Assembly (NCBI GenBank): GCA_024277205.1
Contig: JAJRVP010000013.1
Coordinates: 8,735-72,734, forward strand
Origin: an archaeon
GTDB lineage: Archaea > Nanobdellota > Nanobdellia > CSSed11-243R1
Direction of reading: 5' to 3'
Length of the DNA: 64,000 nt
The notes beneath the pieces are model-generated. The model was not told where the DNA came from. It was given only the letters and a program-made list of their open reading frames with translations, and ran no database searches. Both the position numbers and the translations under genes were made by a program. The stretch's first letter is position 1. Every line of letters starts with the position of its first letter. Below, in pieces: positions 19,972 through 59,131 of the stretch.

Positions 19972-20626
19972 CTTTTAATTTTATCAATCTTTGTAATCCT
20001 CTTGATATATCTAAATCATGCGTTACTATTATAATTGTTTTTCCTTCTTTTTTATTTAGCGCAATTAGTAAGTCCATTATTTCCCTTCCTGTTTTTGAAT
20101 CGAGATTCCCAGTGGGCTCATCTGCTAGGATCATATCTGGATTATTTGCAAGAGCCCTTGCAACTGCAACCCTTTGTCTTTCTCCACCACTCATCTCAGA
20201 AGGGAGATGGTTAATTCTATTTCCCAAACCCACAAGTTTAAGCAATTTTACCGCTCGTTTTTTTCTTATTTCTGGAAGGACATTTTGAAAAATCATTGGG
20301 AGTTCAACATTTTCTAAGGCAGTAAGAGATGGAAGAAGGTTAAAAGTTTGAAAAACAAAACCAATTTCCTTTCCTCTTAAAATTGCTAGTTCACTTTCTT
20401 TAAACTTAGTTATATCTTTTCCTTTAAAGAAAATTTTACCTTTTGTTGGCACATCTAATGTTCCAATTAAGTGCATACAAGTAGATTTTCCAGAACCAGA
20501 CGGTCCGATAATACCGACTAGTTCGCCTTTATTTATATTAAAAGAAACACCTCTTAATGCAGGGACATCTACTTTTCCCAATTTATATATTTTCCAAACA
20601 TCTCTAAACTCAATTAAATGTTTCAT
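19949..20626 (-). CDS. ABC transporter ATP-binding protein (MacB/LolD-like)
   Basis: Walker A GPSGSGKST, signature LSGGERQR, Walker B ILADEPT. Confidence 0.9.
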   Translation of the reverse strand: MKHLIEFRDVWKIYKLGKVDVPALRGVSFNINKGELVGIIGPSGSGKSTCMHLIGTLDVPTKGKIFFKGKDITKFKESELAILRGKEIGFVFQTFNLLPSLTALENVELPMIFQNVLPEIRKKRAVKLLKLVGLGNRINHLPSEMSGGERQRVAVARALANNPDMILADEPTGNLDSKTGREIMDLLIALNKKEGKTIIIVTHDLDISRGLQRLIKLKDGKIVGG

Positions 20627-21920
20627 TTTTGATTACAACTTTAATATCAAAGGGCTTATTTAATTTTTCTAAAACTTTCATCTTTAAAGTTTTAAATTCA
20701 CTTTCAAGATTTTTTATCTTATTTTTTAAATTTAAGATTTCTTTTTCAATCTCTTTATCCCATTTTTCAGAAACTTTTAATGTTTCAACCGCATTTTCAT
20801 AATCATTATCTTGAAATTTTTCTAGTTTTAATCTGAGGTTTTTGATTTCGTCTTCAATTTTTTCAATTTTGCTTTTGTATTCCTCAAAAAGAGTTGGGGC
20901 TTTGTCAATAATTTCAAATATTTTTTGTTTAGTTTTTTCATCAAATTTTAATTTATTTTTTTCAATTAACTTTTTAACATCTTTGATTATTTCAATAATT
21001 TCTTTTGATTTATCTAACTTCATACCTTCCATAGGCTCATGGATATATCCTTCTATAATCTTTATTTTTTCTTTATCAAGAAGTTCGCCATAATAGTGCA
21101 GATATTTTCTGAGGGCTTTATTAAGAGCATTTGCTTTATGTCTTAGTTCCAATTTTAATCTTTCTTGTTCTCTTTTTAATTCTGAAATTTGATGCTCAGT
21201 TGAAATTTTTTCTTTAAATTGCGAAGAATTTTCAATTTCTTTTATTTTGGCAGTTAAAATTTCCTTATTTTTATGCAAGCTTTCTAATTCTTTATTTTGT
21301 TCTTCCAACTCTTTTTTACTTTTTTCAATCTGTTTCTTTAGATGAATTAATCTTTTTGCATCTTTTTTAAGAGAGATAATGGCATTTGCTTTTTCTTGTT
21401 TTTCCCCAACTATTCCTTCTAATTCTTTTAACTTTAAACTAATATTTTTAAAAATATTATTTAGTTCTAGCATCTGCTTTTTAAAAGCGAGTTTGACAAA
21501 TTCTCCATGTTTACTAAGAAGGTTGGTTAATTCTTTTAATGCTTTCCAATTTTTTTCTTTAAATTCCACTAAATTATCCCAATTTTTTATTTCAAAGTTT
21601 GAATCAAGAAAACGTTTTGATATGAAAACACATTTATCTGCAAGATTATCTCTTCCAATTAGGATTCTTTTTTTCAATCGCGGGTCTATATCTGTAGTAA
21701 TTTTGCTTTCTTTTAGATTGTGTGCTATTTTAGATATCTCTTTAAAGTAAGCAGAAATTTTAGATTTAATCTTATTAGATTTATCATAAATATCTGCGAA
21801 CTCTTTTTGCTCTAAATCTTGGATTAATGATTCAAAATCTTCTAATTTAATTGTTTGTTCTTTTATTTCTGGCTCTTTTTTCTTGAACCATTTTAGGAAG
21901 TTAAACATATTAAAAATCAA
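20610..21920 (-). CDS. long coiled-coil protein (436 aa)
   Basis: Heptad-rich K/E/L composition throughout; no NTPase motifs; overlaps the start of the ABC ATPase gene (same operon). Confidence 0.5.
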   Translation of the reverse strand: MIFNMFNFLKWFKKKEPEIKEQTIKLEDFESLIQDLEQKEFADIYDKSNKIKSKISAYFKEISKIAHNLKESKITTDIDPRLKKRILIGRDNLADKCVFISKRFLDSNFEIKNWDNLVEFKEKNWKALKELTNLLSKHGEFVKLAFKKQMLELNNIFKNISLKLKELEGIVGEKQEKANAIISLKKDAKRLIHLKKQIEKSKKELEEQNKELESLHKNKEILTAKIKEIENSSQFKEKISTEHQISELKREQERLKLELRHKANALNKALRKYLHYYGELLDKEKIKIIEGYIHEPMEGMKLDKSKEIIEIIKDVKKLIEKNKLKFDEKTKQKIFEIIDKAPTLFEEYKSKIEKIEDEIKNLRLKLEKFQDNDYENAVETLKVSEKWDKEIEKEILNLKNKIKNLESEFKTLKMKVLEKLNKPFDIKVVIKNETFN

Positions 21921-34764: not shown

Positions 34765-35514
34765 ATGCAAGTCTTAATAATTGATGTTTCTAAATGCCCT
34801 GAATGCAACTCAACTAAGATCCAATTTAATTCTAAGACTCATGAATTATACTGCCAAGAATGCGGCTATGTAATGCAAGATAGAATTCCTGTAATTGAGG
34901 CAAAATATGGAAAAGCTGAAAAGGTATATATTAATCCAAAGGAAAAGAAAATTGCAATTGTAATTAAGGGGATTCTGAAAAGCCCAATTGAGAAAAAGAT
35001 GACTCCTTTTTATGCAGAATTAAAAAAGTTTCGTTTGCCAAAATATGTTGAAGCTGAAGTTATTTCAATTTGCAAGAAATGTGTTGAAGAAAAATTAACT
35101 ATGAGCTATTCAAAGCTAAAGCTCCTTTCCGCCACAATTTATCTAGTTTCAAAAAGAGAAGGAATCCCAATTATGATAAAAGGATTAACCAAAACTTATG
35201 GCGTTGAAAAGTATGACATTTTAAAGGTTGCCAAATTTATTTCTAAGAAATTTAATCTAAAATTGCCAAACGGAGATGTTGAAAATTATATTATTAGAAT
35301 AACAAGTGACTTAAACAAAGAAGGAGAATTAACTCGCGAAGCAATTAAAATCTCTAAAACACTTAACATCTGCAACCCGCTTATAAAAACCGCCGTTGCA
35401 ATTTGGCTTGCTTCTCAAAAACTCAAAATCAAACTCAAAAAATACGAACTCGCAAATGCCTGCGGTATTTCTGAATTGACATTGAGGAGAAATCTGAGGA
35501 AAAGTTTAAATTAA
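34765..35514 (+). CDS. transcription factor TFIIB-like paralog (short, 249 aa)
   Basis: N-terminal Zn ribbon CPEC..x15..CQECG followed by cyclin-like repeats; shorter and more divergent than the canonical TFB at 58208. Confidence 0.65.
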   Translation: MQVLIIDVSKCPECNSTKIQFNSKTHELYCQECGYVMQDRIPVIEAKYGKAEKVYINPKEKKIAIVIKGILKSPIEKKMTPFYAELKKFRLPKYVEAEVISICKKCVEEKLTMSYSKLKLLSATIYLVSKREGIPIMIKGLTKTYGVEKYDILKVAKFISKKFNLKLPNGDVENYIIRITSDLNKEGELTREAIKISKTLNICNPLIKTAVAIWLASQKLKIKLKKYELANACGISELTLRRNLRKSLN

Positions 35515-36958: not shown

Positions 36959-37801
36959 TCACCCTTCATGTTTTGCCTTTGGGGTGTCTTTGAAGCATCT
37001 TTCTTTGTATTCGCAGTATTTGCACATCCAGTTTGATTCTTTGTGAGCTCTTGCTTCTGCTTCTGGAAGTATATTTTCAACTAAGTGCTTGTGCAATTTC
37101 TTAAAGCGCTCAATTATTCTTCGAGCTTCAGCTTCATCATATTTTATTTCAAAAATTTTGCTTTTAAGATTTGTTTTGTCAATATAAAGCAAAATACCAT
37201 TATGGACTCCAGTGAAATGCATGTACAATTGCAGTTGCTGCACATTGTGAGGAGAAGCATTGTTCACCCATTGGATTCCTTTTGTTGATTTTACTTCAAC
37301 AAGATAAATTTTGCCACTTGCTTTTATTTTGATTAGATTATCTATGCGCCCAGATATTAGAAAATCCTCAACTTTCTCCTTAAATGGAAATTCGCTTTCT
37401 AATAATTCAACATCTTTTGTTTTTTCTGATTTAAGAACTTCAACAACAAAGTCGTGGATAATGTCACCCATTTTGAATATTTTTCTCAAGTCGGGGTCAA
37501 TTTCAGAAGGATACTTATAAGAGTACCAAACTTTGCGCATGCACGAGCCAGCCTCAGAAGGATAGTATTTTCCTATGCCTTTTGGCTTTGATTCCCTTTT
37601 TATGTGCTCATCAATGAGCTTGTCAAAGTCTATCACAATATATTTAATATTTACTGTATTTATAATTATTAAGGTGGGGTTCTGAGGTGTTTGATATGAA
37701 TATAAAAAACGTACTGCTTGATTGGAGTGGCACTCTTGTGGATGTTGTTGGATATTTACATCAGATAGACATGAGAATATTTGATGACTTTGGAGTTCCA
37801 A
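36959..37801 (-). CDS. Cas4-like / RecB-family PD-(D/E)xK nuclease with 4-Cys Fe-S cluster signature (DUF83-like); start uncertain
   Basis: N-terminal Cys (SEAGSC), motif II D (GRIDNL), motif III EVK (YLVEVKSTKG), QxxxY (QLQLY) and C-terminal CxxCx5C (CKYCEYKERC); no cas genes or repeats nearby. Confidence 0.6.
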   Translation of the reverse strand: MELQSHQIFSCLSDVNIQQHPQECHSNQAVRFLYSYQTPQNPTLIIINTVNIKYIVIDFDKLIDEHIKRESKPKGIGKYYPSEAGSCMRKVWYSYKYPSEIDPDLRKIFKMGDIIHDFVVEVLKSEKTKDVELLESEFPFKEKVEDFLISGRIDNLIKIKASGKIYLVEVKSTKGIQWVNNASPHNVQQLQLYMHFTGVHNGILLYIDKTNLKSKIFEIKYDEAEARRIIERFKKLHKHLVENILPEAEARAHKESNWMCKYCEYKERCFKDTPKAKHEG

Positions 37802-39773: not shown

Positions 39774-40883
39774 ATGGGGCCCTACAAAGTCGATACTAAA
39801 CAAAAAGTTATTATTTATAAAGGGAATAAATTATTTCCTAAAACAACAAAAATAGTTGGTATTTGCGCACCAGATCTATCTCGTAGGCATTTGGATTTAA
39901 AAGAACAAAAAAGATTTGCAGCATTAATTCGAATTTATGGAGTGATTCATAAATATGTAAGTGAATTTATGGAAGCGGAGGGGGTAGTCCTTTTTGATTT
40001 ACCAATAACAACCAGGATGATATCCTCACCAGGTGCTTTAACAGGAACTATAATTTCTGATGTGGATCCGTTTAAAATAAAATTCTTTGATAACGACGTA
40101 TTTTTAACACAATCTTCACAATTATATCTAGAATTTGCAATAACGTGTCCTGGGATAAACCAAGTGTACTGTTGGGACAAAAGTTTTAGAAGGGAAAGAG
40201 CCGATTTTAGGCACTTACCAGAATTTACTCACATAGAATATGAAGGAAATATTGACTTCGAACAGAATTTAGAGTTGCAAGAACGATTTTTAAAATATAT
40301 CGTTCATTCTTTATTGAGATATAACAAAGAGGAATTGGGCACATTCATTACAGAAGAAGATATGGCCCAATTGCAAAAATTAACACAATTAAAAAGATTC
40401 AAAAGGATAACCTTTCATGATGCGTTCAAGATTCTCTATGAATATACGAAAGATGAAAAATATAAAACTCCAACAATCAATAATTTTGGGGCATACGAAG
40501 AGATATTACTTACTGAATTAATGGGTAATGAGCCTGTTTTTGTGACGAATTACATAGGGGATGAAGTTGCTTTCTATCATGCTAATATGAAAGAGAACCC
40601 ATCTCTTGTGATGAATGCAGATTTGTTGTTTCCGGGGTATGGAGAATTAATAGGTAGTGGGCAAAGAGTTAATACCAGGGAAGAAACTTTGGCAAAGGCT
40701 AAACACTTCAAACTTAACATAGATGATTATCAGGCATATATAGATTCTAGAGATCCCATAAATCCCAAAATTCATTCTGGATGGGGAATGGGAATCGAAA
40801 GATTCCTACAATGTATTCTCAAGTTACCTTATATCTGGGAAGCTAAAGTTTTTCCGAGAGTAGATAATTCAAATAGACCGTAG
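39774..40883 (+). CDS. class IIb aminoacyl-tRNA-synthetase catalytic core without anticodon-binding domain (archaeal AsnA-type asparagine synthetase-like)
   Basis: Motif 2 FRRERADFRHLPEFTHIEYE and motif 3 GMGIERFLQCIL...FPR typical of AsnRS/AspRS; no N-terminal OB fold; 369 aa. Confidence 0.7.
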   Translation: MGPYKVDTKQKVIIYKGNKLFPKTTKIVGICAPDLSRRHLDLKEQKRFAALIRIYGVIHKYVSEFMEAEGVVLFDLPITTRMISSPGALTGTIISDVDPFKIKFFDNDVFLTQSSQLYLEFAITCPGINQVYCWDKSFRRERADFRHLPEFTHIEYEGNIDFEQNLELQERFLKYIVHSLLRYNKEELGTFITEEDMAQLQKLTQLKRFKRITFHDAFKILYEYTKDEKYKTPTINNFGAYEEILLTELMGNEPVFVTNYIGDEVAFYHANMKENPSLVMNADLLFPGYGELIGSGQRVNTREETLAKAKHFKLNIDDYQAYIDSRDPINPKIHSGWGMGIERFLQCILKLPYIWEAKVFPRVDNSNRP

Positions 40884-40891
40884 GTGATTTT

Positions 40892-41719
40892 ATGGAATTA
40901 AAAGACATAACTCCTGAAAAAATAGAAAAAATGGATTATAATGAATTAATTGCGATTGTAAGAGAAACAAATAGACCCCCAGGAGGATCTAAAGTAATTA
41001 ATGAGATATTAATTCATTCTTTTATGTCTGATAAGAGTAAGATTTTGGACGTGGGAACAAGTACAGGTTTTACATCATTGGAGATTGCTAAATTGATTAA
41101 TGCTGAAATAATTGGTATTGATATAAATGAACTTGCTCTAAAAGAAGCAAGGGAGAGGGCAAAAAAATATGGATTCCACAATTTAAAATTTTTGAAAGCC
41201 GATGTAACAAATATGCCATTTAAAAAAGGATATTTTGATATGGTGTTTTGTGGTAATGTTACCTCCATAATACCCAACCGAAAAAAAGCATTTGAAGAAT
41301 ATAAAAGAGTCACAAAAAAATGGGGTTTTCTAGCAGCAGTTCCAATGTATTATGTTAAAGAACCACCTAACGAATTGATAAAAAGGGTTTCAGATGCGAT
41401 TCATGTCAATATAAAACCTTTATTCAAAAAAGATTGGATTGATTTTTTTAAAGACCCAGAGTATGAATTGTTTTTTATGAAAGATTATCTCTTTGATAAA
41501 AAAACAGATAAGGAAGTAAATAATTTTGTTGATGAGATCCTTAAACGACCCCATTTGAGAGAGTTACCAGAAGATACCTTCAATTTGCTTAAAAAGAAAT
41601 ATAGGGATTATATGATGCTTTTTAGAGATAATTTAAGTTATATGGGTTTTTCTATATTATTGCTCAGAAAAAAAGATAAGGAGATTGATCCAGAACTTTT
41701 TACCTCAACAGAGATTTGA
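40892..41719 (+). CDS. class I SAM-dependent methyltransferase
   Basis: Motif I ILDVGTSTGF and acidic motif II (IGIDIN); 275 aa. Confidence 0.7.
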   Translation: MELKDITPEKIEKMDYNELIAIVRETNRPPGGSKVINEILIHSFMSDKSKILDVGTSTGFTSLEIAKLINAEIIGIDINELALKEARERAKKYGFHNLKFLKADVTNMPFKKGYFDMVFCGNVTSIIPNRKKAFEEYKRVTKKWGFLAAVPMYYVKEPPNELIKRVSDAIHVNIKPLFKKDWIDFFKDPEYELFFMKDYLFDKKTDKEVNNFVDEILKRPHLRELPEDTFNLLKKKYRDYMMLFRDNLSYMGFSILLLRKKDKEIDPELFTSTEI

Positions 41720-42642
41720 GTTTTAGAAAGAAGATGTTGAATATGGGAAAAATTGATATCCACACTCACATTGGAAAAGATGTTTTATTTGATAATATGG
41801 ACATTCATAAAGAATTAAATAAAGAAACAGCAAATTCTCTTCTAAAAAGAATGGATGATTTCGAAGTTACTTATTCTGTTGTTATGGCTCAACCATTCCC
41901 CACATATTATGACCCAAACTCAATCCATCTTGAAAAAATGAAACCTTCTGGTAAAGATGTGTTTCCATATAGATTAGAAAATGAATTTATTTTATCTGAA
42001 TGTAATGGCAAAGATAGATTACTGCCTTTTTTATTTGTAGACCCTTCTGAAAAATTGGAAGAACAAGTGGAATACATAAAAAGCAAAATAAAGGGAACAA
42101 ATAGAATTTATGGAATAAAGGTGCACCCATTTGCAACACACAGTTATCCCCAAAGCATAATTGATTCGGAGCTTGTTGTCTTAATGAGGGCATACAATTT
42201 ACCAATTATCTTCCATTCAGGTTCTGATGTGTATTCAAACCCCCAAAATATCATAGAATTATCAGAAGCACACCCTGACATAAGGATAGATATGGCGCAT
42301 TTATGTGGATTTGATAGAGATTTGTTTAAAAACTTACCTGACAACAAAAATTTATTTATTGATATCTCTCCATTTGTTTCCTTGTGCAAATCCGTGATAC
42401 ATAAAGATTTTTCAGTAGTTTCTAAAAATTATTTGGAACTTGATTACATAGATATTAAAGAAGTACTAATTTATTTTGTTTCAAATTACAGAGAAAAATT
42501 GATGTGGGGGACCGATACCCCATGGCATAATGTGACAAATACGAGTTATGAAATGGAAAATACTTTTTTGGAAATATTATCTTTTGAAGATAAAAAAATA
42601 ATAACTGAAACAAATGCAAAGAAATTTTTAGGCAATTTATAA
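41716..42642 (+). CDS. amidohydrolase-2 family TIM-barrel metal-dependent hydrolase
   Basis: N-terminal IDIHTHIG metal-binding motif; downstream His (KVHPF, FHSGSD) and Asp (WGTD) residues. Confidence 0.65.
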   Translation: MSFRKKMLNMGKIDIHTHIGKDVLFDNMDIHKELNKETANSLLKRMDDFEVTYSVVMAQPFPTYYDPNSIHLEKMKPSGKDVFPYRLENEFILSECNGKDRLLPFLFVDPSEKLEEQVEYIKSKIKGTNRIYGIKVHPFATHSYPQSIIDSELVVLMRAYNLPIIFHSGSDVYSNPQNIIELSEAHPDIRIDMAHLCGFDRDLFKNLPDNKNLFIDISPFVSLCKSVIHKDFSVVSKNYLELDYIDIKEVLIYFVSNYREKLMWGTDTPWHNVTNTSYEMENTFLEILSFEDKKIITETNAKKFLGNL

Positions 42643-42653
42643 ATAACCCTCAA

Positions 42654-43673
42654 CTAAAAGTGTATCCTAAATACATCTTCTTCAGAATCAAGTTCAACTT
42701 CAGCACCCAGGGGTACTGTGATAATTGGATCTGTATGCCCTATATCTACACCATAACAAATTGGAAAATCATAACCTTTAGTATTTTCAAGTATAATTTC
42801 TTTGAATTTTTCAACTTCGTTTTGGTTATATCTGAATGGCCTACCAACAATTAAACCCTTTATTTTTTCAAATATTCCCGCTATTCTAAGTTCTGTTAAA
42901 TAAGAATCTACGTTTGGGAGTGGTTCTCCTTTTGAAAAATCTTGCCCTTCAGGGATTTCAATAAATAGAATTTTATTCTTGTGATCTGGCCAATATGGTG
43001 TTCCAATTAGATGAATTATTGAGGATAAACACCCCCCAATTATTTGGGCTTTTGCTTTTCCATTTTTAAGCCAAGAAAAACCAGGGTTATTCTTTAATTT
43101 TCTTGCTCTTTTTAAGTCATCTTTTTTTGCCCAATCTAAAATTTCATCTGTCCATCTATCAGATGGTACTACCCTTCCTATTTTTTTACCTTTAAGAACT
43201 GCTTTTAAAAAATAATCAATGGTGTAATCCAACGGTTTTGGAAATTCCCCAAATTGCGTCATAGCACAAGGACCATAAAAACCCATTAGATTGGATTTTT
43301 TCATTAAAGCATAGTGAATAATTGATATATCTGAGTATCCACAAAAAATTTTTGGATGTTTCTTTATTTTTTTAAAGTTTAGATACTCTAAGGTCTGATT
43401 TGCTGTATTTCCTCCAATAGTCGTGAGAATTAAATCTACACTTCCATCAAAAAAAGCACTGTTGATATCATTTGCTCGCTCTTCTGGAGTTCCAGCACTC
43501 CAGTCTTTAACCTTTCTGATAGTTCCAAATTCCTTGACTCCAAATCCAATTTTTTTGAGGGCTTTAATGGCATTATGTATTCTATGTGGAAAAATGGCAG
43601 ATAAACAAGAAGATGGTGCGATAATCCCAATTGTACTTCCTTTTTCTATTTTCTTTGGTTTAATAATGTCCAT
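42654..43673 (-). CDS. S66-family LD-carboxypeptidase (LdcA/MccF-like serine peptidase)
   Basis: N-terminal GSTIGIIAPSS and catalytic-serine motif FCGYSDISIIH, characteristic of peptidase S66 / microcin C7 immunity protein MccF. Confidence 0.75.
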   Translation of the reverse strand: MDIIKPKKIEKGSTIGIIAPSSCLSAIFPHRIHNAIKALKKIGFGVKEFGTIRKVKDWSAGTPEERANDINSAFFDGSVDLILTTIGGNTANQTLEYLNFKKIKKHPKIFCGYSDISIIHYALMKKSNLMGFYGPCAMTQFGEFPKPLDYTIDYFLKAVLKGKKIGRVVPSDRWTDEILDWAKKDDLKRARKLKNNPGFSWLKNGKAKAQIIGGCLSSIIHLIGTPYWPDHKNKILFIEIPEGQDFSKGEPLPNVDSYLTELRIAGIFEKIKGLIVGRPFRYNQNEVEKFKEIILENTKGYDFPICYGVDIGHTDPIITVPLGAEVELDSEEDVFRIHF

Positions 43674-43711
43674 GATTTTAAGAAAAAGTACAAGTAATAA
43701 ATATTTTATGT

Positions 43712-44134
43712 TTAATATTTGTTGATAATTCTTGCCAATTCTTTCAATTCTTCTTCATCTGCTCGGATTCCAATATTATTTGGTCCTTTTTCTGTTGTTA
43801 GGTAACCCAAGTAAGATTCATCATACATTGGATATAATTTGATATGAGCATGATCGATCTCCATCCCCTCAAATACAATGAATACCCTCTGGCTTCCCAA
43901 TGACTTAGTAAGTTTATCTGCTGTTTCTTTAACAGCTAAAAATAGAGATATGTAATCCTCTTGTGGCATATCAAAAATATTGCTTCCAAAATGTTTTTTT
44001 GGGATGACAAGAGATTGACCTTTTGTATTTGGATAGATATCTAAAAATCCTAAATTTTTATCATCTTCATATATTTTGTGATAGGGTTCCTTACCCAAAA
44101 CCATTCTACAAAACAAACAATCGTGATTTATCAT
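43712..44134 (-). CDS. HIT-family hydrolase (Hint-like)
   Basis: Histidine triad (IDHAHIKLYP); 140 aa. Confidence 0.8.
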   Translation of the reverse strand: MINHDCLFCRMVLGKEPYHKIYEDDKNLGFLDIYPNTKGQSLVIPKKHFGSNIFDMPQEDYISLFLAVKETADKLTKSLGSQRVFIVFEGMEIDHAHIKLYPMYDESYLGYLTTEKGPNNIGIRADEEELKELARIINKY

Positions 44135-44246
44135 GATGTACTGAAGTAATTATGTGTTTATATATTTTATCACTCTAAAGTAACACAGGTTAACAAAAAC
44201 TTTAAATATGGATTTTGTATTATTTTTAATAACTCGATAGTAGTGA

Positions 44247-46793
44247 GTGATTAAAATGGAATCTGATAAAAAGAGTTTTTATTTAGTGTTTGCGTATCCT
44301 ACTGCATCCGGTACTGCTCATGTAGGGCACATGAGGTCTTATACTTTTCCTGATATAATCGCCAGATATCAACGTCTGAAGGGAAAAAATGTTTTTTTTC
44401 CATCAGGATTACATGCTACAGGGGTAGATTGTGAGAATCTGTTTCAGAATTTTAAAGAGAATCCAAAAATCTGTGAAAAATATGGTTTAAACGTGGAAGA
44501 TTTGGCAGAAATAAATTCGCCATTTGATCTTGTTAAATACCTAGAACGTCGCTTTAAAAAATCATTCAAGGATTATAACTTAAGTTTAGATTATGATTGT
44601 TTTGTAACCACTGTAGATGAACCGTATAAACGATTTATTCAATGGCAAATTAAAAAATTAAGAGAAAAAGGGTATATAATAAAAAAAAACCATAGACTTC
44701 CTTGGTGCCCAAATTGTGAACACACAGTATCTTTGGATCCTGCAGAGGCAGATCTTAAATTTGGAGGTACTGCTAGAATTGTAGATTATGCATTAATTAA
44801 ATTCGCAGTTGATAATGAAGATAATGTTTTTGCCCCCATAGGTACATTACGTTCAGAAACTATCTTTGGTGCTACAAATCTTTGGATTTCTAAAAATACA
44901 GAATATATAAAAACAAAAATAAATGGAGAATACTGGATAATTTCAAAAGAAGCATTAGCTAATTTGAGAGTCTATGATAACAATATCTCTATTGAAGAAA
45001 AAATTGATGCTTCCGAATTAGAAAGATTGACTGTAATAAATCCAGTTAACTTGGAAAGATTACCAATAATAGCAACAGATTTTGTAAAACCTGAAGAAGC
45101 AACAGGAGTAGTTATGTCTGTGCCCGCTCATGATCCTTATGATTTCATAAATGTTAAAAAATTTTTACCAGATGCGAATATTAAAATTGTTGTTAATACT
45201 AAAAAAACATTAGAAGAATTAATCGATGAATCCAAACAAACAGAAAAGGAATTGGAACAAATACTAAAAAAACATTATTCGGAAGAAAACAGAGGGACTA
45301 TGTTGGAATTCACAGGAAAATATGCTGGGATGAAAGCTTCAGAAGCAAGAAAAGAGTTGATTTCTGATCTAATCAAAATGGGCAAATGTGATATTCTACC
45401 TACTTTATCTGAACCAGTTAGATGTAGATGTGGGACTGATGTCACAATAAAAATAGTTAAAGGACAATGGTTTATAGATTATAGCAATCCAAAATGGAAG
45501 AAAAAGACTAAACATCTTTGTGAAGGTATCCAAACATATCCAAATGATTACAAAGATGAACTTCTAAATCATATCATTGATTGGATAGATGCAAGACCAT
45601 GCACAAGAAAACACGGCATGGGAACGGAATTTCCTTTAGAAGAGGGGTGGTTAGTAGAAGCACTTGCAGATAGTACAATGTATATGGCTTTTTTCCCAAT
45701 AATGAAGTATTACAACAATGGTAAATTAAAGATAGAAAACCTCACCGACGAATTTTTTGATTATTTACTTTTAGATAAAGGGGAGGTTGATACTGTTTCA
45801 AGTAATACAGGATTACCTAAAGAAACACTGTTGGAAATAAAAGATTTTTTTGAGGAAGTATACCCACTTGATCTAAATGCGGGTGGTATAGAACATAAAG
45901 CAGTTCATTTTCCATTTTTCTTATTTACTCACGCTGCTTTGTTAGATGAAAAATATTTTCCAAAATCCATTTTCCTAAATTGGCATGTTGTAGTTGAAGG
46001 GGAAAAGATGAGTAAAAGTAAGGGGAATGTGGTATTTTGGGATGATTTAATTAAACGCTATAAAAATGATCAGATAAGATATTATATAACTGCATCCACT
46101 AACCAATGGAGTAATTTCGACTGGCAAGAGAAAGAGTTAGTCGCTTATGCTAATAGGTATAATAAGCTTGTTAGCAACATTGAGGATATTTTAGAAAGGG
46201 TGGAACATTTAGATAAAATATCTGATAAGGACCATATAGATGAATGGCTTTTATCAAAACAGGATACGTTTATTAATGAGGCAACAAAAAACATGGAAAA
46301 TTATAACTTGAGAAACGTTCTCCATATTGTAGCATATGAGATGACAGAAACAATTAATTGGTATTTAGAGCGTGGTGGGTCAAATAAAGAAGTAGCGGAA
46401 GGATTTGTTTTTAATCAATTAGCTATGCTGACACCATTCTTGCCAGAAACTGTTGAAGATCTTAGTAAGAGTGTAAATTTGAGTATAGATCACTGGCCAG
46501 AATCCAACGGTGTCCAAAATAAAAAAATAGAAATGATAGAGGATTCAATTAAAAAAACAATAGAAGATATAAACAATGTTAAACGCATAAGCTCTGGCGA
46601 ACATCAAAGGTGTATACTTTATGTTGTTAGTGAAGTAGAGAAAAAAGTGTATGAATCTGCATTGCCATTGATAAAAGATAAAGTTGGTATCCCCGAAGTA
46701 ATGGTTTATCAGGTAAACGAAAAGAATGTTGAAGATCCTTTGGAAAAATCCAAAAAAGCAAAATTTTGTAGGCCGGGATTATTTTTGGATTGA
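44247..46793 (+). CDS. leuS: leucyl-tRNA synthetase, archaeal/eukaryal type, short form (848 aa)
   Basis: HIGH-type motif (PTASGTAHVGHM), KMSKS (KMSKSKGN); N-terminus strongly LeuRS-like; shorter than typical archaeal LeuRS (about 950 aa). Confidence 0.8.
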   Translation: MIKMESDKKSFYLVFAYPTASGTAHVGHMRSYTFPDIIARYQRLKGKNVFFPSGLHATGVDCENLFQNFKENPKICEKYGLNVEDLAEINSPFDLVKYLERRFKKSFKDYNLSLDYDCFVTTVDEPYKRFIQWQIKKLREKGYIIKKNHRLPWCPNCEHTVSLDPAEADLKFGGTARIVDYALIKFAVDNEDNVFAPIGTLRSETIFGATNLWISKNTEYIKTKINGEYWIISKEALANLRVYDNNISIEEKIDASELERLTVINPVNLERLPIIATDFVKPEEATGVVMSVPAHDPYDFINVKKFLPDANIKIVVNTKKTLEELIDESKQTEKELEQILKKHYSEENRGTMLEFTGKYAGMKASEARKELISDLIKMGKCDILPTLSEPVRCRCGTDVTIKIVKGQWFIDYSNPKWKKKTKHLCEGIQTYPNDYKDELLNHIIDWIDARPCTRKHGMGTEFPLEEGWLVEALADSTMYMAFFPIMKYYNNGKLKIENLTDEFFDYLLLDKGEVDTVSSNTGLPKETLLEIKDFFEEVYPLDLNAGGIEHKAVHFPFFLFTHAALLDEKYFPKSIFLNWHVVVEGEKMSKSKGNVVFWDDLIKRYKNDQIRYYITASTNQWSNFDWQEKELVAYANRYNKLVSNIEDILERVEHLDKISDKDHIDEWLLSKQDTFINEATKNMENYNLRNVLHIVAYEMTETINWYLERGGSNKEVAEGFVFNQLAMLTPFLPETVEDLSKSVNLSIDHWPESNGVQNKKIEMIEDSIKKTIEDINNVKRISSGEHQRCILYVVSEVEKKVYESALPLIKDKVGIPEVMVYQVNEKNVEDPLEKSKKAKFCRPGLFLD

Positions 46794-46797
46794 TAAA

Positions 46798-47313
46798 ATG
46801 GAATTTATATATGAAAAAAAGGTATTCAGGATTGATAGAGAAGTATATGCTACTATCTGCGATTTTTTTGAAAGTTATTCTTTTTATCGAATAAATGAGA
46901 TATTCATTATTCCTAAATCAATAAAAAATAGGAGGTCTCAGATTAATAGGATGCGAGTAGAAACTAACCACCTAAGATATCCAGTTAATGTAAAAATTAA
47001 TGAACGTGGTAATTTAAGGGAGTATTATATAAGAAGTTTTGGTTCTGATTTCAATCTTGTTTTATTTGAATGGTATGAAACTTGGGATAAACCATTTAGA
47101 GTTTATTCGTTGGGTAAGGGACTTTATAATAACAGAGAAGTGGCATTACTGGCATTAGCCCAAGCTTTTGGAGAAAAAGAGAAACTTATTGTTTTGGCAG
47201 ATGAATTAAAAAAGAAGGGTGAAAATTTATTTAGTGAACTAGAAATAACCATCTCCACAGAATTTCATTCATCATGTTTAAGAATTGCGGGCGTGGTTCA
47301 AGATGAATATTGA
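46798..47313 (+). CDS. hypothetical protein (about 171 aa from MEFIY)
   Basis: ORF immediately after the LeuRS stop; could be a split C-terminal module or unrelated. Confidence 0.4.
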   Translation: MEFIYEKKVFRIDREVYATICDFFESYSFYRINEIFIIPKSIKNRRSQINRMRVETNHLRYPVNVKINERGNLREYYIRSFGSDFNLVLFEWYETWDKPFRVYSLGKGLYNNREVALLALAQAFGEKEKLIVLADELKKKGENLFSELEITISTEFHSSCLRIAGVVQDEY

Positions 47314-48535
47314 GGGTAAACTTAAAGAAATGAAAAAAACACTAGAATTGGCTGAAGTAATTGATCTTGGGGGATATGGTAAGGGACTGCCCCTATGGCT
47401 GCCTTATGGGTTAAAAATTGCTGAAAGGATAAATGACTTATTTATTGCTCACTTACAAAAAAAATTAGATTTTGAAATTATAGATCACCCAAATCTAATC
47501 CCTCTTGAGGAATATTCCTCATTATTTGATAAAGTTGGTTTTGAAAATGTTTATGTTCTGGAAGGAGAGAAAAAGTATGTATTACGGCCAGATACACTAC
47601 AATTCAATTTCGAATATATTCTTCAAAAAGATATAAATGCAGCCTTATCTATTTCTTCTGGATTCAGAGTAGAAACAGGGATTACTGTTCCTCTTTTTAG
47701 GGATAGGCATATTTGGCCCTTTATTCAATTCAATAGTATGTGTGATAATACTGATCTAGAAAATTTGTTACAAAAGAATGTATCTGCTCTTGCCGAACTT
47801 TTTGAAGACATGTGTTTCCCATATTTCTTTGTTGATAGTGGTAAAAAGAGGAATTATGCGGGAAATCAAATAAATGGTATGACATTTATGGAAAGTGGGG
47901 AACTAACAATAATTTCGATGACGTATGTTCTATCAAATCTCTTTTCTGAACATTTTGGTGTCCCAAATAAGAAGATGATAGATTCGGGTTATACTGAAAA
48001 ATTAGTTGGTATGTTAGCTATTCTTCACAGAGATGAAAATGGACTTATTCTTCCAAGTAAAATTGCGCCCTACAACATAGTTTGTTTTTCACGGGAAGGT
48101 AATATTCATCCAGATATTAAGGAGATGTTGAATAGTACCTCTTTTAGGATTTACTATGACGAACAAGAGGATAAAATAAAAAGGAAGTTTAAAAGATGGA
48201 TTAGGAAGGGCACCAATATTATTTTACTGTGCGAAAATGATAAAATTGTAAAAGTTGTTAAAAGGTATAATGATTCCTCAGAGGAATTTAAGAATGTAGG
48301 TAGGTTTGAGCAGATCTTAAAAGAAAATGACGATTTTCTTAAGAATAGATGTATTCATTTAATTGAAAGTTTGTCAGATAGATCTAAAGAACCGTATATT
48401 GCTAGTCTTTGTGATGGATGTGCTGAAAATAAAAAAGTTTTTGGGAGAATATATCCAGAAAAAAAAGAAAAATGTGAATTCTGTGGAAAAGAAGGAGTTA
48501 AATACTTAGTTACAAATGTGTCAAGAATATACTAA
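47285..48535 (+). CDS. truncated/divergent class IIa aaRS paralog, ProRS-like (416 aa) with C-terminal Zn ribbon and terminal Tyr
   Basis: ProRS-like motif-2 region (FRVETGITVPLFRDRHIWPF), motif-3/anticodon-domain junction (LILPSKIAPYNIV), C-terminal CDGC...CEFC and final ...RIY as in archaeal-type ProRS. Confidence 0.5.
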   Translation: MRAWFKMNIEGKLKEMKKTLELAEVIDLGGYGKGLPLWLPYGLKIAERINDLFIAHLQKKLDFEIIDHPNLIPLEEYSSLFDKVGFENVYVLEGEKKYVLRPDTLQFNFEYILQKDINAALSISSGFRVETGITVPLFRDRHIWPFIQFNSMCDNTDLENLLQKNVSALAELFEDMCFPYFFVDSGKKRNYAGNQINGMTFMESGELTIISMTYVLSNLFSEHFGVPNKKMIDSGYTEKLVGMLAILHRDENGLILPSKIAPYNIVCFSREGNIHPDIKEMLNSTSFRIYYDEQEDKIKRKFKRWIRKGTNIILLCENDKIVKVVKRYNDSSEEFKNVGRFEQILKENDDFLKNRCIHLIESLSDRSKEPYIASLCDGCAENKKVFGRIYPEKKEKCEFCGKEGVKYLVTNVSRIY

Positions 48536-48539
48536 AGAA

Positions 48540-48724
48540 AGCCTCGGGAGGGACTTTCACGCACCCACGGAAATTCTTTCCGTGCACGCTTTCTTTTTAA
48601 GAAAGGGTGCTTTCGAACCCTCGACCCCCAGCTTACAAGGCTGGTGCTCTGGCCAATTGCTCCAACACCTTCTTTTGGTGCAGCTTTTCTTCCAAAGAAA
48701 AGGTGCTAGCTGAGCTACCGAGGC
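48540..48724 (-). tRNA. tRNA-Thr (anticodon UGU) with two introns (D-loop and T-loop)
   Basis: Minus-strand hand fold: acceptor GCCTCGG/CCGAGGC, D-stem GCTC/GAGC, anticodon arm CCAGC-CTTGTAA-GCTGG, T-stem GAGGG/CCCTC; about 50-nt insertions interrupt the D-loop and T-loop. Confidence 0.65.
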
Positions 48725-51855: not shown

Positions 51856-52263
51856 TCAAATCAAATGTAATTTGATTTTTTCTGTGATTTCTCTGAACTT
51901 TTCAGATGTGTATGTTTTTGTTTTTTTTATGTTCATTAAATCCTCAAGAGAGTCGCTTTTAAGTTTTGGAAGAAGCCAGACATGAGCATGTGGAACCTCA
52001 TCTCCCAAAACATAAGAGAGAATTTGCTCGGTGCCAAAAGCTTTTCTTATTGCTTTAGCAATCTTTTGGACGACTTTGTAGTATTCGTCTATGTTTGGCA
52101 CATCCCAAACCCACTGAATATGTTCTTTTGGAATCACTAAAACATGTCCTTCTGTAACAGGACGGATTGAAAGAAAGGCAAGAAATTTTTCATCTTCATA
52201 AACTTTGTAAGCGTTTAGTTCTCCTTTTACGATTTTGCAGAATGGGCATTCAATTGTCTTCAT
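51856..52263 (-). CDS. HIT-family hydrolase
   Basis: Histidine triad (VPHAHVWLLP); N-terminal CPFC; 135 aa. Confidence 0.8.
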   Translation of the reverse strand: MKTIECPFCKIVKGELNAYKVYEDEKFLAFLSIRPVTEGHVLVIPKEHIQWVWDVPNIDEYYKVVQKIAKAIRKAFGTEQILSYVLGDEVPHAHVWLLPKLKSDSLEDLMNIKKTKTYTSEKFREITEKIKLHLI

Positions 52264-52816
52264 ATTCTACACCCATCTTCTCAAACAATAATCGTGCGTA
52301 TCCTTTATGGATTATATTTTCCTTTGGCAACTTAAGTTTTTCTATTAATCTAAGAATTCTCTTTTTTGCTTCTTCGCTGTTGTCCGAAATTAATTCAAAC
52401 TCAACAAAATCACCAAGCCCTTCAATTTTATCAAGGTTCACTTCAAACTCATTAAGCTTTCCTTGCTCCCTTGTTTTTACTTTTGAAATAACTTTTACAA
52501 AGCCAAGCTTTTCAAGAATTCTCTCCATGTCTTTTTTGTTTGAGATTTCAGTTTCATATTCTTCCCAAACTCCTTGCTTGCCTGTGAGCAATTTCATAGT
52601 TAGAATTGATTTTTCATTTTCGCTGCGAATTCTGAGAAGAAAGGAGCCAGCTTTTTGTAACTCCATTTCTTTTCCTTTTTGCTTGTAATAGTTATCAACT
52701 TGCTTTTTCGGGCTTCCAAATTTTGCGCCAATAGACTCTAGTTTCTTTTTCACTTCTTCCAAATTTTCAACTTTAACTTTTACTTCGATTTCCAAATTAT
52801 CCCTGTTTGTATCCAA
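52250..52816 (-). CDS. CYTH-domain protein (triphosphate tunnel metalloenzyme / CyaB-like)
   Basis: N-terminal E-x-E-x-K motif (LEIEVKVKV) and later LRIR; 188 aa; overlaps the neighbouring genes at both ends. Confidence 0.7.
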   Translation of the reverse strand: MDTNRDNLEIEVKVKVENLEEVKKKLESIGAKFGSPKKQVDNYYKQKGKEMELQKAGSFLLRIRSENEKSILTMKLLTGKQGVWEEYETEISNKKDMERILEKLGFVKVISKVKTREQGKLNEFEVNLDKIEGLGDFVEFELISDNSEEAKKRILRLIEKLKLPKENIIHKGYARLLFEKMGVEYEDN

Positions 52817-53294
52817 TTTTTCTTAAGAATTCTTTGCGCTCTTTAATTTTGTTTTCATCTTCAATCCCTTTTGGCTTGTTGCCATCAATCACACCAAGAA
52901 TTCCTTTTCCTTGCTCTGTTTCTGCAACAATTACTTCTGTTGGATTTGCAGTTGCTGTAAAAATTCTGCACACTTCGGGTATCATTTTAATCGCATTTAA
53001 AATATTGATTGGGTATCCATTTCGCAAGAAGATTATAAATGTATGCCCAGCCCCAATTTTGTATGCTTGCTCTGCTGCAGCTTTTTCTAGTTCTTCATCA
53101 TTACCTGTATGTCTTATTAGGCAATCTCCAGATGCTTCTACAAAACCAATTCCAAATTTTATATTTGGATTGCAATTGACAATTGCTTCGTATAAGTCTT
53201 CAACAGATTTAATAAAATGTGTTTGTCCAAGAATTAGATTAACATCTTGGGGAGATTCAATTTTTACAATTTTGATTTCCATTTGTTTCACCAA
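52797..53294 (-). CDS. archaeal adenosine-specific-kinase-family (PF04008-like) protein
   Basis: 165 aa; pattern IKIVKIE...GQTHFIKSVEDL...GIGFVEASG...HTGNDEELEKAA...GAGHTFIIFL resembles that conserved archaeal family, called from memory. Confidence 0.45.
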   Translation of the reverse strand: MVKQMEIKIVKIESPQDVNLILGQTHFIKSVEDLYEAIVNCNPNIKFGIGFVEASGDCLIRHTGNDEELEKAAAEQAYKIGAGHTFIIFLRNGYPINILNAIKMIPEVCRIFTATANPTEVIVAETEQGKGILGVIDGNKPKGIEDENKIKERKEFLRKIGYKQG

Positions 53295-58207: not shown

Positions 58208-59131
58208 ATGAAAATGGGTAAAAAAATTTCTAAATGTCCTGAATGCGGTTCTAAAAAGTTATACTGGGACAGAAGTCGTGGAGAAGTTATTTGCAAGGCA
58301 TGCGGCTTTGTAATTGAAGAGAGACTGATTGATTTTTCACAGGAATGGAGAGAATTTGACTCTGAACAAGGAGAATCACGAAGAAGGGTTGGCTCACCAC
58401 TAACCTTTACAAAACATGATAAAGGTTTGTCTACAAAAATTGGTAAGGCTGGCGACTTAACAAAAATGACACCATCTGAGAGAAGAATGTATTACAGGAT
58501 GAGAAAATGGCAAACACGAATTTCCACTCCTATTGAACGAAATTTAAAATTTGCATTAGCAGAACTAAAAAGAATTGCAAGTTTTTTAGATGTTCCAAAA
58601 ATTGCAGAAGAAGATGCTGCCATGATATACAGAATGGCTGCTGAAAAAGGATTAGTTAGAGGAAGAAGCATGGAATCTGTTGTTGCAGGAGCTCTTTATG
58701 CAGCTTGCAGAAGACATGGTGTGCCACGAACCCTTGATGAGATATCCCATGCATTTCCACTTGATAAAAAAGAAATTGGAAAAACATACAGATTTATCTG
58801 CAGAGAATTAAGAATTAGAATTTTACCAACCTCACCACAGGATTATGTACAAAGGTTTGCATCTGAGCTGAAATTAAAACCCAAAACAGTTTCAAAAGCA
58901 GTTGAGATAATCAAAAAAGCGAACAAACTTGAGATAACAAGTGGAAAAGGTCCAATGGGAATTGCAGCAGCAGCTCTTTATGTTGCAGCATTGCTTTCAG
59001 GTGAAAAGAAAACACAAAGAGATGTTGCAGATGTTGCAGGTGTAACAGAAGTTACAATAAGAAATCGTTACAAAGAACTTTTAGAAAAACTAAAGCTTGA
59101 GGATCAAATAAAGAAAATTCGTGAGAAATGA
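58208..59131 (+). CDS. tfb: transcription initiation factor IIB (TFB), canonical
   Basis: N-terminal Zn ribbon CPECGS...CKACG, B-reader/linker, two cyclin repeats; 307 aa. Confidence 0.92.
   Translation: MKMGKKISKCPECGSKKLYWDRSRGEVICKACGFVIEERLIDFSQEWREFDSEQGESRRRVGSPLTFTKHDKGLSTKIGKAGDLTKMTPSERRMYYRMRKWQTRISTPIERNLKFALAELKRIASFLDVPKIAEEDAAMIYRMAAEKGLVRGRSMESVVAGALYAACRRHGVPRTLDEISHAFPLDKKEIGKTYRFICRELRIRILPTSPQDYVQRFASELKLKPKTVSKAVEIIKKANKLEITSGKGPMGIAAAALYVAALLSGEKKTQRDVADVAGVTEVTIRNRYKELLEKLKLEDQIKKIREK

Follow-up and report, generated by a model that had tools for sequence, protein, structure and literature searches.

A putative agn-type gene cluster for an aminoacyl-adenylate mimic in an archaeal genome and its relatives in DPANN archaea and CPR bacteria

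We analyzed a 64-kb stretch of archaeal chromosomal DNA with a GC content of ~32% (hereafter, the window) and identified in it, at positions 39774 to 48535, a cluster of eight genes, four of which (A, C, D, and a leucyl-tRNA synthetase [LeuRS] gene) are derived from aminoacyl-tRNA synthetases (aaRSs) according to open reading frame (ORF) calls and searches with Pfam and NCBIfam models. We interpret this locus, with a probability that we put at roughly 60%, as an archaeal agn-type cluster, i.e., one that would direct the biosynthesis of an acyl-phosphoramidate mimic of an aminoacyl-adenylate and provide self-immunity against it, the product probably being aimed at LeuRS. The prototype, agn, is carried by Agrobacterium radiobacter K84 on its plasmid pAgK84 and serves to make, and to survive, agrocin 84, an antibiotic that resembles an activated amino acid. 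Similar clusters have been reported in Ensifer (two Rhizobiales in all) and in a handful of Actinobacteria (PMC8323819). New here are a minimal agn-like cluster in an archaeon, which includes a HIT gene and an archaeal LeuRS, and its membership in a large, previously unremarked family of DPANN archaea and candidate phyla radiation (CPR) bacteria with interchangeable synthetase passengers; in the searchable literature, a library that is incomplete, no paper was found that connects archaea, DPANN, or CPR with agrocin or the agn genes.

Five of the window proteins have agn homologs on pAgK84. Gene A (39774 to 40883, plus strand, 369 aa) corresponds to AgnA, gene B (40892 to 41719, plus strand, 275 aa) to AgnB1, gene C (46798 to 47313, plus strand, 171 aa) to AgnC0, gene D (47285 to 48535, plus strand; likely start at the ATG at 47330, giving ~401 aa) to AgnC1, and gene E (42654 to 43673, minus strand, 339 aa) to the S66 peptidase of the plasmid. 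The other three genes encode an Amidohydro_2 enzyme (41716 to 42642, plus strand, 308 aa), a HIT hydrolase (43712 to 44134, minus strand, 140 aa), and the archaeal-type LeuRS (44256 to 46793, plus strand; 845 aa from the ATG at 44256, with the ORF opening at 44247). On the minus strand of pAgK84, genes for an "asparagine synthetase A" (AgnA), a methyltransferase (AgnB1), a leuS product (AgnB2), a 139-aa ORF, and an unannotated ORF of ~420 codons are followed by those for a short-chain dehydrogenase/reductase (SDR), a methyltransferase, a PF04909 amidohydrolase, an S66 peptidase, a PhyH dioxygenase, and a radical S-adenosylmethionine (SAM) enzyme. Two stretches of local order are thus common to the window and the plasmid, namely, AgnA-AgnB1 and AgnB2(LeuRS)-AgnC0-AgnC1. 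The AgnC1 gene spans the origin of the pAgK84 record (NC_006277.2, designated L091 in our locus collection; ~43760 to 44420 plus 1 to 560, minus strand) and was recovered by circularizing the record; because it crosses the start of the circular record, the distributed gene table omits it. In the published account of agrocin 84, the aaRS-like AgnA is proposed to form the phosphoramidate bond, the remotely ProRS-like AgnC1 is the alternative candidate for this step, and agnC0, a 420-bp ORF before agnC1, encodes the probable partner of AgnC1 (PMC8323819), while AgnB2 is the LeuRS that confers immunity on the producer (PMC8323819; PMC5059758).

Gene spacing in the window indicates three transcription units, namely, A-B-amidohydrolase, HIT-S66 on the opposite strand, and LeuRS-C-D. 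In the first of these, A and B are separated by 8 nt and B and the amidohydrolase gene by −4 nt; in the third, the LeuRS stop lies 4 nt upstream of the start of C on the same strand. The intergenic region (44135 to 44255) between the divergent HIT-S66 and LeuRS-C-D units is presumed from the gene arrangement to be a shared promoter region; a scan for sigma-70 promoters and terminators was uninformative for an archaeal host. A preliminary description of this DNA had listed an S66 peptidase of the MccF type, a HIT hydrolase, an amidohydrolase-2 enzyme, and a SAM-dependent methyltransferase among three aaRS-like genes, and all of these are borne out by the Pfam and NCBIfam searches; what it overlooked was a fourth aaRS derivative, C. 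The evidence for an agn-type cluster consists of homology and conserved synteny, of catalytic motifs that are kept in A, D, E, and the LeuRS, and of the fold of C.

Gene A encodes a class IIb synthetase catalytic core of the AgnA type in which PF00152 is the only domain recovered (145 bits). Residues 36 to 366 align with positions 118 to 448 of the AsnRS model, and since the match is confined to these positions, the protein has no anticodon-binding domain (N-terminal OB domain), as the preliminary description had proposed. In profile searches, A scored 203 bits with the AsnRS model (curated cutoff, 414) and at most 134 bits with the AsnA models (cutoff, 389), so that by these measures it is neither a housekeeping AsnRS nor an archaeal AsnA. 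The best solved relatives are the AsnRSs of Thermus thermophilus and Pyrococcus horikoshii. Like the archaeal asparagine synthetase A (AS-AR, AsnRS2), A is a class IIb catalytic core without an anticodon-binding domain, and like AsnRS it retains the QSxQLYLE motif; it differs from both in its sub-cutoff scores, in a TT..(I/V)SSP insertion, in its separate clade, and in its constant MccD-like and MccF-like neighbor genes. Motif 2 (SFRRE, residues 137 to 141), motif 3 (GMGIER, residues 338 to 343), and the AsnRS-type QSSQLYLE (residues 113 to 120) are invariant across the family, and the terminal FPR is kept. A also keeps the Glu and Arg positions that align with E225 and R368 of the T. thermophilus AsnRS.

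A is 28% identical to AgnA (E = 1e−29), and the TT..(I/V)SSP segment is a derived signature common to the A family and the AgnA-type proteins that is not found in synthetases. In a neighbor-joining tree, the A family forms its own clade, sister to the AgnA-type proteins and apart from the true AsnRSs and AspRSs, and does not cluster with ordinary archaeal AsnA. A homolog search recovered 536 proteins. The best 120, almost all 366 to 372 aa long and 48 to 67% identical, belong to DPANN archaea and to CPR bacteria, Berkelbacteria and Parcubacteria among them. The mean column identity in the family is 63%, and the identity between CPR bacterial and DPANN archaeal members is ~60%. We predict from these sequence features that A is an adenylate- or phosphoramidate-forming enzyme.

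The next gene, B, encodes a protein with the class I SAM-dependent methyltransferase fold that is both MccD- and AgnB1-like. Its best match among solved structures is MccD of the microcin C system (PDB code 5fcd; 94.7 bits over the full length), followed by a generic methyltransferase at 50 bits, and it is 46.6% identical to the AgnB1 protein of pAgK84 over 264 aa (E = 1e−86), which was found by tblastn of plasmids. Gene E encodes the Peptidase_S66 N- and C-terminal domains, and its PDB matches are a Bacillus anthracis MccF-like protein (185 bits), BaMccF (171 bits), and Escherichia coli MccF (152 bits), with LdcA scoring 66 to 74 bits or lower. Ser114 (GYSD), Glu239 (FIE), and His313 (GHT) of E align with the MccF catalytic triad and Trp174 (RWTDE) aligns with the adenine-stacking Trp; the identity to the S66 peptidase of pAgK84 is 33% (E = 2e−65). 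This comparison places E in the MccF clade of S66 peptidases, not with LdcA; its predicted reaction is the cleavage of aminoacyl-phosphoramidate nucleotides at the acyl-N bond.

The cluster HIT protein is divergent (34 bits with PF01230) but is 41 to 53% identical to HIT proteins encoded next to A at 11 other loci, with which it shares an HxHxK motif common to this cluster-linked subfamily. From the HIT domain and the subfamily membership, it is predicted to be a phosphoramidase of the MccH functional type, for which MccH provides the precedent (PMC7157772). A second, more canonical HIT gene of the window (51856 to 52263; 61 bits), 34% identical to the first, lies in an apparent operon with genes for a CYTH-domain protein and an adenosine-specific kinase (PF04008) (51856 to 53294, minus strand); the genome therefore has two HIT paralogs, of which only one is in the cluster-linked subfamily. 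The Amidohydro_2 enzyme (PF04909; 43.5 bits), a member of the metal-dependent hydrolase/decarboxylase superfamily, is remotely related to amidohydrolases encoded after A and the methyltransferase in 7 DPANN loci (26.5 bits in a profile search). A PF04909 gene (55.8 bits) also adjoins the S66 gene of pAgK84; we considered and rejected orthology of the two amidohydrolases, which show no pairwise similarity and have only the Pfam family in common.

Genes C and D are adjacent and co-oriented, matching the AgnC0-AgnC1 pair. C has no Pfam match, and its relatives are 14 small proteins that were retrieved only by exhaustive search, a word-indexed search having returned C alone. It aligns with AgnC0 in a 17-member family of proteins of 141 to 172 aa, with weak pairwise similarity (E = 0.003). 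An AlphaFold model computed with the alignment as input (pLDDT 86.7; single-sequence input gave an unusable model with a pLDDT of 42) has a minimal class II synthetase catalytic fold without the Arg of motif 2. A profile search against the PDB and an hhalign comparison with D both gave nonsignificant results, so that the kinship of C with synthetases is established by fold comparison only. On the basis of this model, the hitherto uncharacterized AgnC0 family can be assigned a fold, that of a minimal class II synthetase core, and C is predicted to be a noncatalytic partner that may interact with D. Noncatalytic class II synthetase paralogs that act as partner subunits are known in HisZ, PheRS beta, and Pol gamma B, from which C differs in its length of only 141 to 172 aa in the family as a whole and in the lack of detectable sequence similarity to any solved protein.

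D is a ProRS derivative of the AgnC1 family. Its family profile matches the Methanocaldococcus jannaschii ProRS (PDB code 1nj8) with 87.5 bits (E = 7e−24), while D itself reaches only 69 bits with TIGR00408 (cutoff, 437) and so lacks the credentials of a housekeeping ProRS. With the AgnC1 ORF that spans the origin of the pAgK84 record, it shares 28% identity over 291 aa (E = 6e−31). The motifs of this gene had been described as degenerate, which holds for motif 3, reading GYTEK with Lys in place of Arg, and not for motif 2 (FRVE...LFRDRH), the C-terminal Zn ribbon, or the terminal Tyr typical of archaeal/eukaryotic-type ProRSs, all of which are kept. We predict from these features that D is a second adenylating enzyme. 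A ProRS-like family found in other loci of our collection (family 3) was tried as a counterpart of D and rejected, the relationship being remote (34 bits) and family 3 deriving from bacterial-type ProRS, whereas D derives from archaeal-type ProRS. With both A and D far below the curated cutoffs, the possibility that the AsnRS-like and ProRS-like genes are simply housekeeping copies is excluded.

The LeuRS occupies the position of AgnB2, with LeuRS-C-D in the window corresponding to AgnB2-AgnC0-AgnC1 on pAgK84. It scores 730 bits with PRK12300 (cutoff, 677) and 623 bits with TIGR00395, just below the cutoff of 648.5, and has the HVGH (residues 25 to 28) and KMSKS (residues 587 to 591; ORF numbering) motifs and the CP1 editing (PF13603) and anticodon-binding (PF08264) domains; in motifs, domains, and curated score it thus has the features of a functional archaeal LeuRS. 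About 85 C-terminal model positions are missing, the C-terminal domain being absent, as it is in relatives of 844 to 876 aa. The LeuRS had been called short, and while the gene is indeed a LeuRS gene, its length is not unusual among these closest relatives. We rejected short length as the mark of a paralog, since relatives of similar length are housekeeping genes. A LeuRS gene followed by a ProRS-like gene occurs in four lineages with three LeuRS types, among them pAgK84, a Xenorhabdus plasmid, and two further loci of our collection (L078 and L081). Producer-encoded resistant synthetases, such as AgnB2, AbmK for albomycin, and the MetRS of actinobacterial agn-like clusters, provide a parallel in that a full synthetase gene lies inside the cluster (PMC8323819). 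We consider a functional link of the LeuRS to the cluster quite likely, rate the chances that it is an extra genomic copy as about even, and regard it as a candidate target or immunity synthetase.

The gene families of this cluster recur together in other genomes. A scan with the A profile, with one genome per species, yielded 80 loci from Woese-, Pace-, Nano-, Micr-, and Parvarchaeota and from Patescibacteria (Nealson-, Saccharibacteria, Uhrbacteria, and Parcubacteria). Gene neighborhoods were counted by ORF clustering and tblastn in the 36 nonredundant DPANN/CPR loci in which A has flanks of 5 kb or more on either side. An MccD-like methyltransferase gene follows A in 32 of the 36, and an S66 gene is present in 30, with both occurring together in 30 and either S66 or HIT in 33; 27 loci have one or more additional synthetase-like genes no farther than 6 kb from A. 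Synteny is therefore strongly conserved, and because the same families travel together in dozens of unrelated genomes, their co-location in the window is not due to chance. The closest counterpart is a DPANN contig (L001, found again as L098) in which A-B-C-D-E are contiguous and the encoded proteins are 52 to 64% identical to those of the window (52% in the case of D). S51 peptidase genes lie beside A in four loci, and across the collection all three classes of microcin C immunity hydrolase, namely, S66 (MccF), HIT (MccH), and S51 (MccG), adjoin A. In experiments, these three classes have proved able to detoxify phosphoramidates of the microcin C type (PMC8323819; PMC7157772; PMC9239234), and the occurrence of all of them beside A speaks for an aminoacyl-N-P-nucleotide linkage in the product.

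The passenger synthetases vary from locus to locus and include LeuRS-like, paired AsnRS, AspRS, GlyRS, LysRS-like, and ProRS-like proteins. Variant gene orders include A-methyltransferase-ProRS-like-S66; A-LysRS-like-methyltransferase-(radical SAM)-S66; A-methyltransferase-LeuRS-like-ProRS-like-S66, with an AsnC-type regulator in front; and AsnRS-A-methyltransferase-amidohydrolase-HIT. In loci of the Woesearchaeota type (L034, 1109 to 3795; L042, 239 to 1519 and 4524 to 5816; L063; and L028), two distinct, bona fide AsnRS lineages, both above the curated cutoff, lie beside A, which they flank in L034 and L042, and as one of them consistently adjoins it, this looks like a duplicated-target arrangement for AsnRS. 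In four other loci (L026, L030, L078, and L081), an archaeal-type LeuRS-like gene, encoding ~670 aa without the CP1 editing domain and scoring 287 bits (cutoff, 677), directly follows A and the methyltransferase gene and precedes a bacterial-type ProRS-like gene without the INS domain. A CPR variant (L003 and L007/L008) combines A, S66, a small pyruvoyl decarboxylase of the AdoMet_dc family, and the MccD-like methyltransferase in the order A-S66-AdoMet_dc-methyltransferase, with two AspRS-type genes (L007) or AlaRS cores on its flanks. In L007 the flanking genes are one canonical and one divergent nondiscriminating AspRS (ND-AspRS), and this arrangement parallels, by analogy, the microcin C aminopropylation pair and its AspRS target. 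Finally, an operon in L006 (10001 to 17185) with genes for a helix-turn-helix protein, A, an APH-type kinase, the MccD-like methyltransferase, a PurD-like (glycine-using) ATP-grasp ligase, a 186-aa ORF, a bona fide GlyRS, and S66 suggests a glycine-directed variant.

The window cluster has in common with that of agrocin 84 an AgnA-type core gene with an AgnB1/MccD-like SAM enzyme gene behind it, a LeuRS gene upstream of the AgnC0-AgnC1 pair, and genes for an S66 peptidase and a PF04909 amidohydrolase. It differs from it in its archaeal, probably DPANN, host and archaeal-type LeuRS, in the additional HIT hydrolase, and in the inversion of the S66-HIT pair relative to the other genes. Plasmids of two other bacteria carry the same core. 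That of Xenorhabdus bovienii encodes an AgnA-like protein, a methyltransferase, an S66 peptidase, several other proteins, a leuS product 42% identical to AgnB2, a ProRS-like protein, and a major facilitator superfamily (MFS) transporter, and a Streptomyces plasmid encodes an A-like protein, a methyltransferase, several other proteins, an HGTP-type aaRS-like protein, and an S66 peptidase. To the microcin C system, the window cluster is linked by B, whose closest solved structure is MccD, by the MccF clade membership of E, and by a HIT protein with a predicted MccH-type function; related loci add S51 peptidases of the MccG class and, in CPR bacteria, the small AdoMet_dc-family decarboxylase adjoining the MccD-like gene, which parallels the MccD-MccE1 aminopropylation pair. 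It differs from microcin C in that its putative nucleotide-linking enzyme is aaRS-derived and in being without the GNAT protein (MccE2) and the MFS protein (MccC). No ThiF-family domain that would indicate a ThiF/E1-like MccB was found in the eight cluster genes or the flanking ORFs scanned, and no MccA precursor peptide was found among the cluster genes, short peptide ORFs not having been searched exhaustively.

The preliminary description had proposed, among other possibilities, an aminoacyl-nucleotide antibiotic biosynthesis or self-immunity locus, a proposal that gains support from the homology and synteny with pAgK84 and from MccD and MccF as the best structure matches. As we picture it, the product would mimic an aminoacyl-adenylate but be nonhydrolyzable, with an N-P (phosphoramidate) bond linking its acyl group to a nucleotide. 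A would use ATP and a carboxamide-bearing amino acid derivative to form the acyl-phosphoramidate-nucleotide bond, and D, together with C, would act as a second adenylating unit preparing the acyl or amide moiety, e.g., by AsnA-like ATP-dependent amidation, with C possibly being a HisZ-like noncatalytic partner that completes the class II dimer. B might decorate the product in a SAM-dependent manner, by transfer of a methyl group or, like MccD, of a 3-amino-3-carboxypropyl group, and the Amidohydro_2 enzyme might further tailor an intermediate. E and the HIT protein would destroy intracellular product, the former at the acyl-N bond and the latter at the P-N bond. The LeuRS in the C-D operon would mark the probable target; it might be an additional, resistant copy, as AgnB2 is, or else an insensitive enzyme that is the only LeuRS of the cell.

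Several observations weigh against this reading. The roles given to the proteins are drawn from homology and gene context, and because the agrocin 84 pathway is itself biochemically unresolved, they are transferred from proposals rather than from facts. A BLASTP comparison of the window ORFs at 30 to 58 kb with the pAgK84 proteins recovered no homologs of the radical SAM, PhyH, SDR, phosphoenolpyruvate-utilizing, nucleotidyltransferase, or NUDIX proteins or of the ATP-binding cassette (ABC) exporter AgnG. Since the genes for these decoration and export functions are absent, the 3′-deoxy and N6-glucofuranosyl-phosphoryl "Trojan horse" parts are not encoded, and the product cannot be agrocin 84; the locus is a variant. 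No exporter or uptake-carrier module is evident within ~10 kb of the cluster. The LeuRS is by sequence an ordinary archaeal-type enzyme that passes the PRK12300 cutoff and is 23 to 25% identical to AgnB2, its nearest relatives are 40 to 43% identical to it, with the three examined sitting in housekeeping contexts without agn genes, and the A-B-C-D-E loci L001 and L098 have no LeuRS gene within 9 kb. Finally, the very wide conservation of A in genome-reduced symbionts could point to a physiological role.

The points on the LeuRS bear on the alternative that it is present by coincidence, as the cell's one housekeeping LeuRS that happens to fall within an agn-like cluster whose target is another synthetase or something else. 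Its full catalytic and editing equipment, its housekeeping relatives, and the LeuRS-less A-B-C-D-E loci all accord with this explanation, and in a genome of ~1 Mb some synthetase genes are expected near any locus by chance. What makes us doubt it is that the LeuRS stop falls 4 nt before C on the same strand with the AgnB2-AgnC0-AgnC1 order reproduced, that a LeuRS or LeuRS-like gene directly before a ProRS-like gene recurs on pAgK84 and elsewhere as noted above, and that the HIT and amidohydrolase genes, the other two genes inserted relative to L001, both belong to recurrent cluster families. The LeuRS also departs at 15 of the positions that are ≥95% conserved among 120 archaeal LeuRSs, the highest value in the set (median, 1), a result that is weak because the set was chosen by similarity to this very LeuRS. 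On balance we find a coincidental LeuRS rather unlikely, and it would be compatible with an agn-type function of the other seven genes.

A second alternative is a physiological pathway, in which the core would make or recycle a nontoxic aminoacyl-nucleotide, a modified amino acid, or a cofactor-like compound required by genome-reduced symbionts, e.g., by an AsnA-related amide-ligase route, with the synthetases linked to it by substrate supply. The A family is indeed widespread and strongly conserved, with its 536 matches and the high identity across CPR and DPANN, and the clusters lie in ordinary chromosomal contexts, adjoining genes for ribosomal proteins, TruB, and RNA polymerase. The core is without exporter or carrier-moiety genes, and an AsnRS gene adjoining that of an AsnRS-derived ligase could reflect asparagine metabolism. 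This has to be set against the failure of A to reach any AsnA or AsnRS cutoff and its grouping with AgnA of a proven antibiotic cluster; against the constant partners of A, which are the enzymes of peptide-nucleotide antibiotics (MccD-like, MccF-clade, HIT, and S51); and against the duplicated or architecture-altered synthetases, which fit target duplication better than substrate channeling. We thus hold a physiological pathway to be unlikely. Quite improbable is a resistance-only island in which S66, HIT, and an insensitive LeuRS would protect against aminoacyl-adenylate mimics of neighbors and A to D would modify or sequester them, for although stand-alone MccF, MccH, and MccG homologs conferring basal resistance are common in nonproducers (PMC8323819; PMC9239234) and no exporter is seen near the cluster, A, B, and C/D are homologous to agn genes in operons assigned to production, not to immunity (PMC8323819), A keeps the ATP-binding motifs 2 and 3 intact, and A, the methyltransferase, and S66 form a unit in 30 of the 36 loci, as is typical of a biosynthetic core plus immunity.

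The cluster lies among genes of basic cellular functions, the window also encoding RNA polymerase B′, A′, and A″, elongation factors EF-2 and EF-1alpha, two transcription factor B (TFB) proteins, and ribosomal protein S8e; no further synthetase genes were found among the larger ORFs of the window. The short TFB gene (34765 to 35514, plus strand), the full-length TFB gene (58208 to 59131, plus strand), a gene for a Cas4-like PD-(D/E)XK nuclease (36959 to 37801, minus strand), and a MacB/FtsX-type ABC transporter operon (17534 to 21920, minus strand) ~18 kb from the cluster have no established link to it. A search for known antiphage defense with PADLOC gave no system match, only generic methyltransferase and HIT-domain matches. 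Directly downstream of D, a GC-rich island (48540 to 48724, minus strand; 50 to 54% versus 32% for the genome) corresponds to a tRNA-Thr(UGU) gene split by two noncanonical introns, the first (48708 to 48657) in the D-loop and the second (48610 to 48553) in the T-loop. This gene was missed by ARAGORN and by an Rfam gathering search, and with both introns removed in silico ARAGORN reports a perfect tRNA-Thr(tgt).

If the locus is an agn-type cluster, as we favor, the agn class extends to Archaea and the CPR, organisms thought to have almost no secondary metabolism, and does so in stripped-down forms. With 3 to 8 genes, these should be much simpler to reconstitute than agn with its 17, and, provided that our reading is right, the step of N-P bond formation, by AgnA or by AgnC1, would become directly testable through them. 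More speculatively, and we offer this as a long shot, the core may be a general, carrierless aminoacyl-adenylate-mimic system of ultrasmall episymbionts (DPANN and CPR) that has been exchanged between the domains of life, with its target reprogrammed by swapping of aaRS-derived accessories and flagged by the embedded synthetase (Leu, Asn, Asp, Gly, Lys, Pro, or Ala). As the clusters are without an uptake moiety and usually without an exporter, the compound might pass by direct cell-cell contact. Contact delivery might then throttle translation in the host, freeing amino acids and nucleotides, or, alternatively, the symbiont might use the compound internally to slow its own translation. If the agn-type reading holds, the variable embedded synthetases suggest a natural modular family of inhibitors directed against several synthetases, which would be of interest for anti-infective design and for the understanding of symbiont-host conflict.

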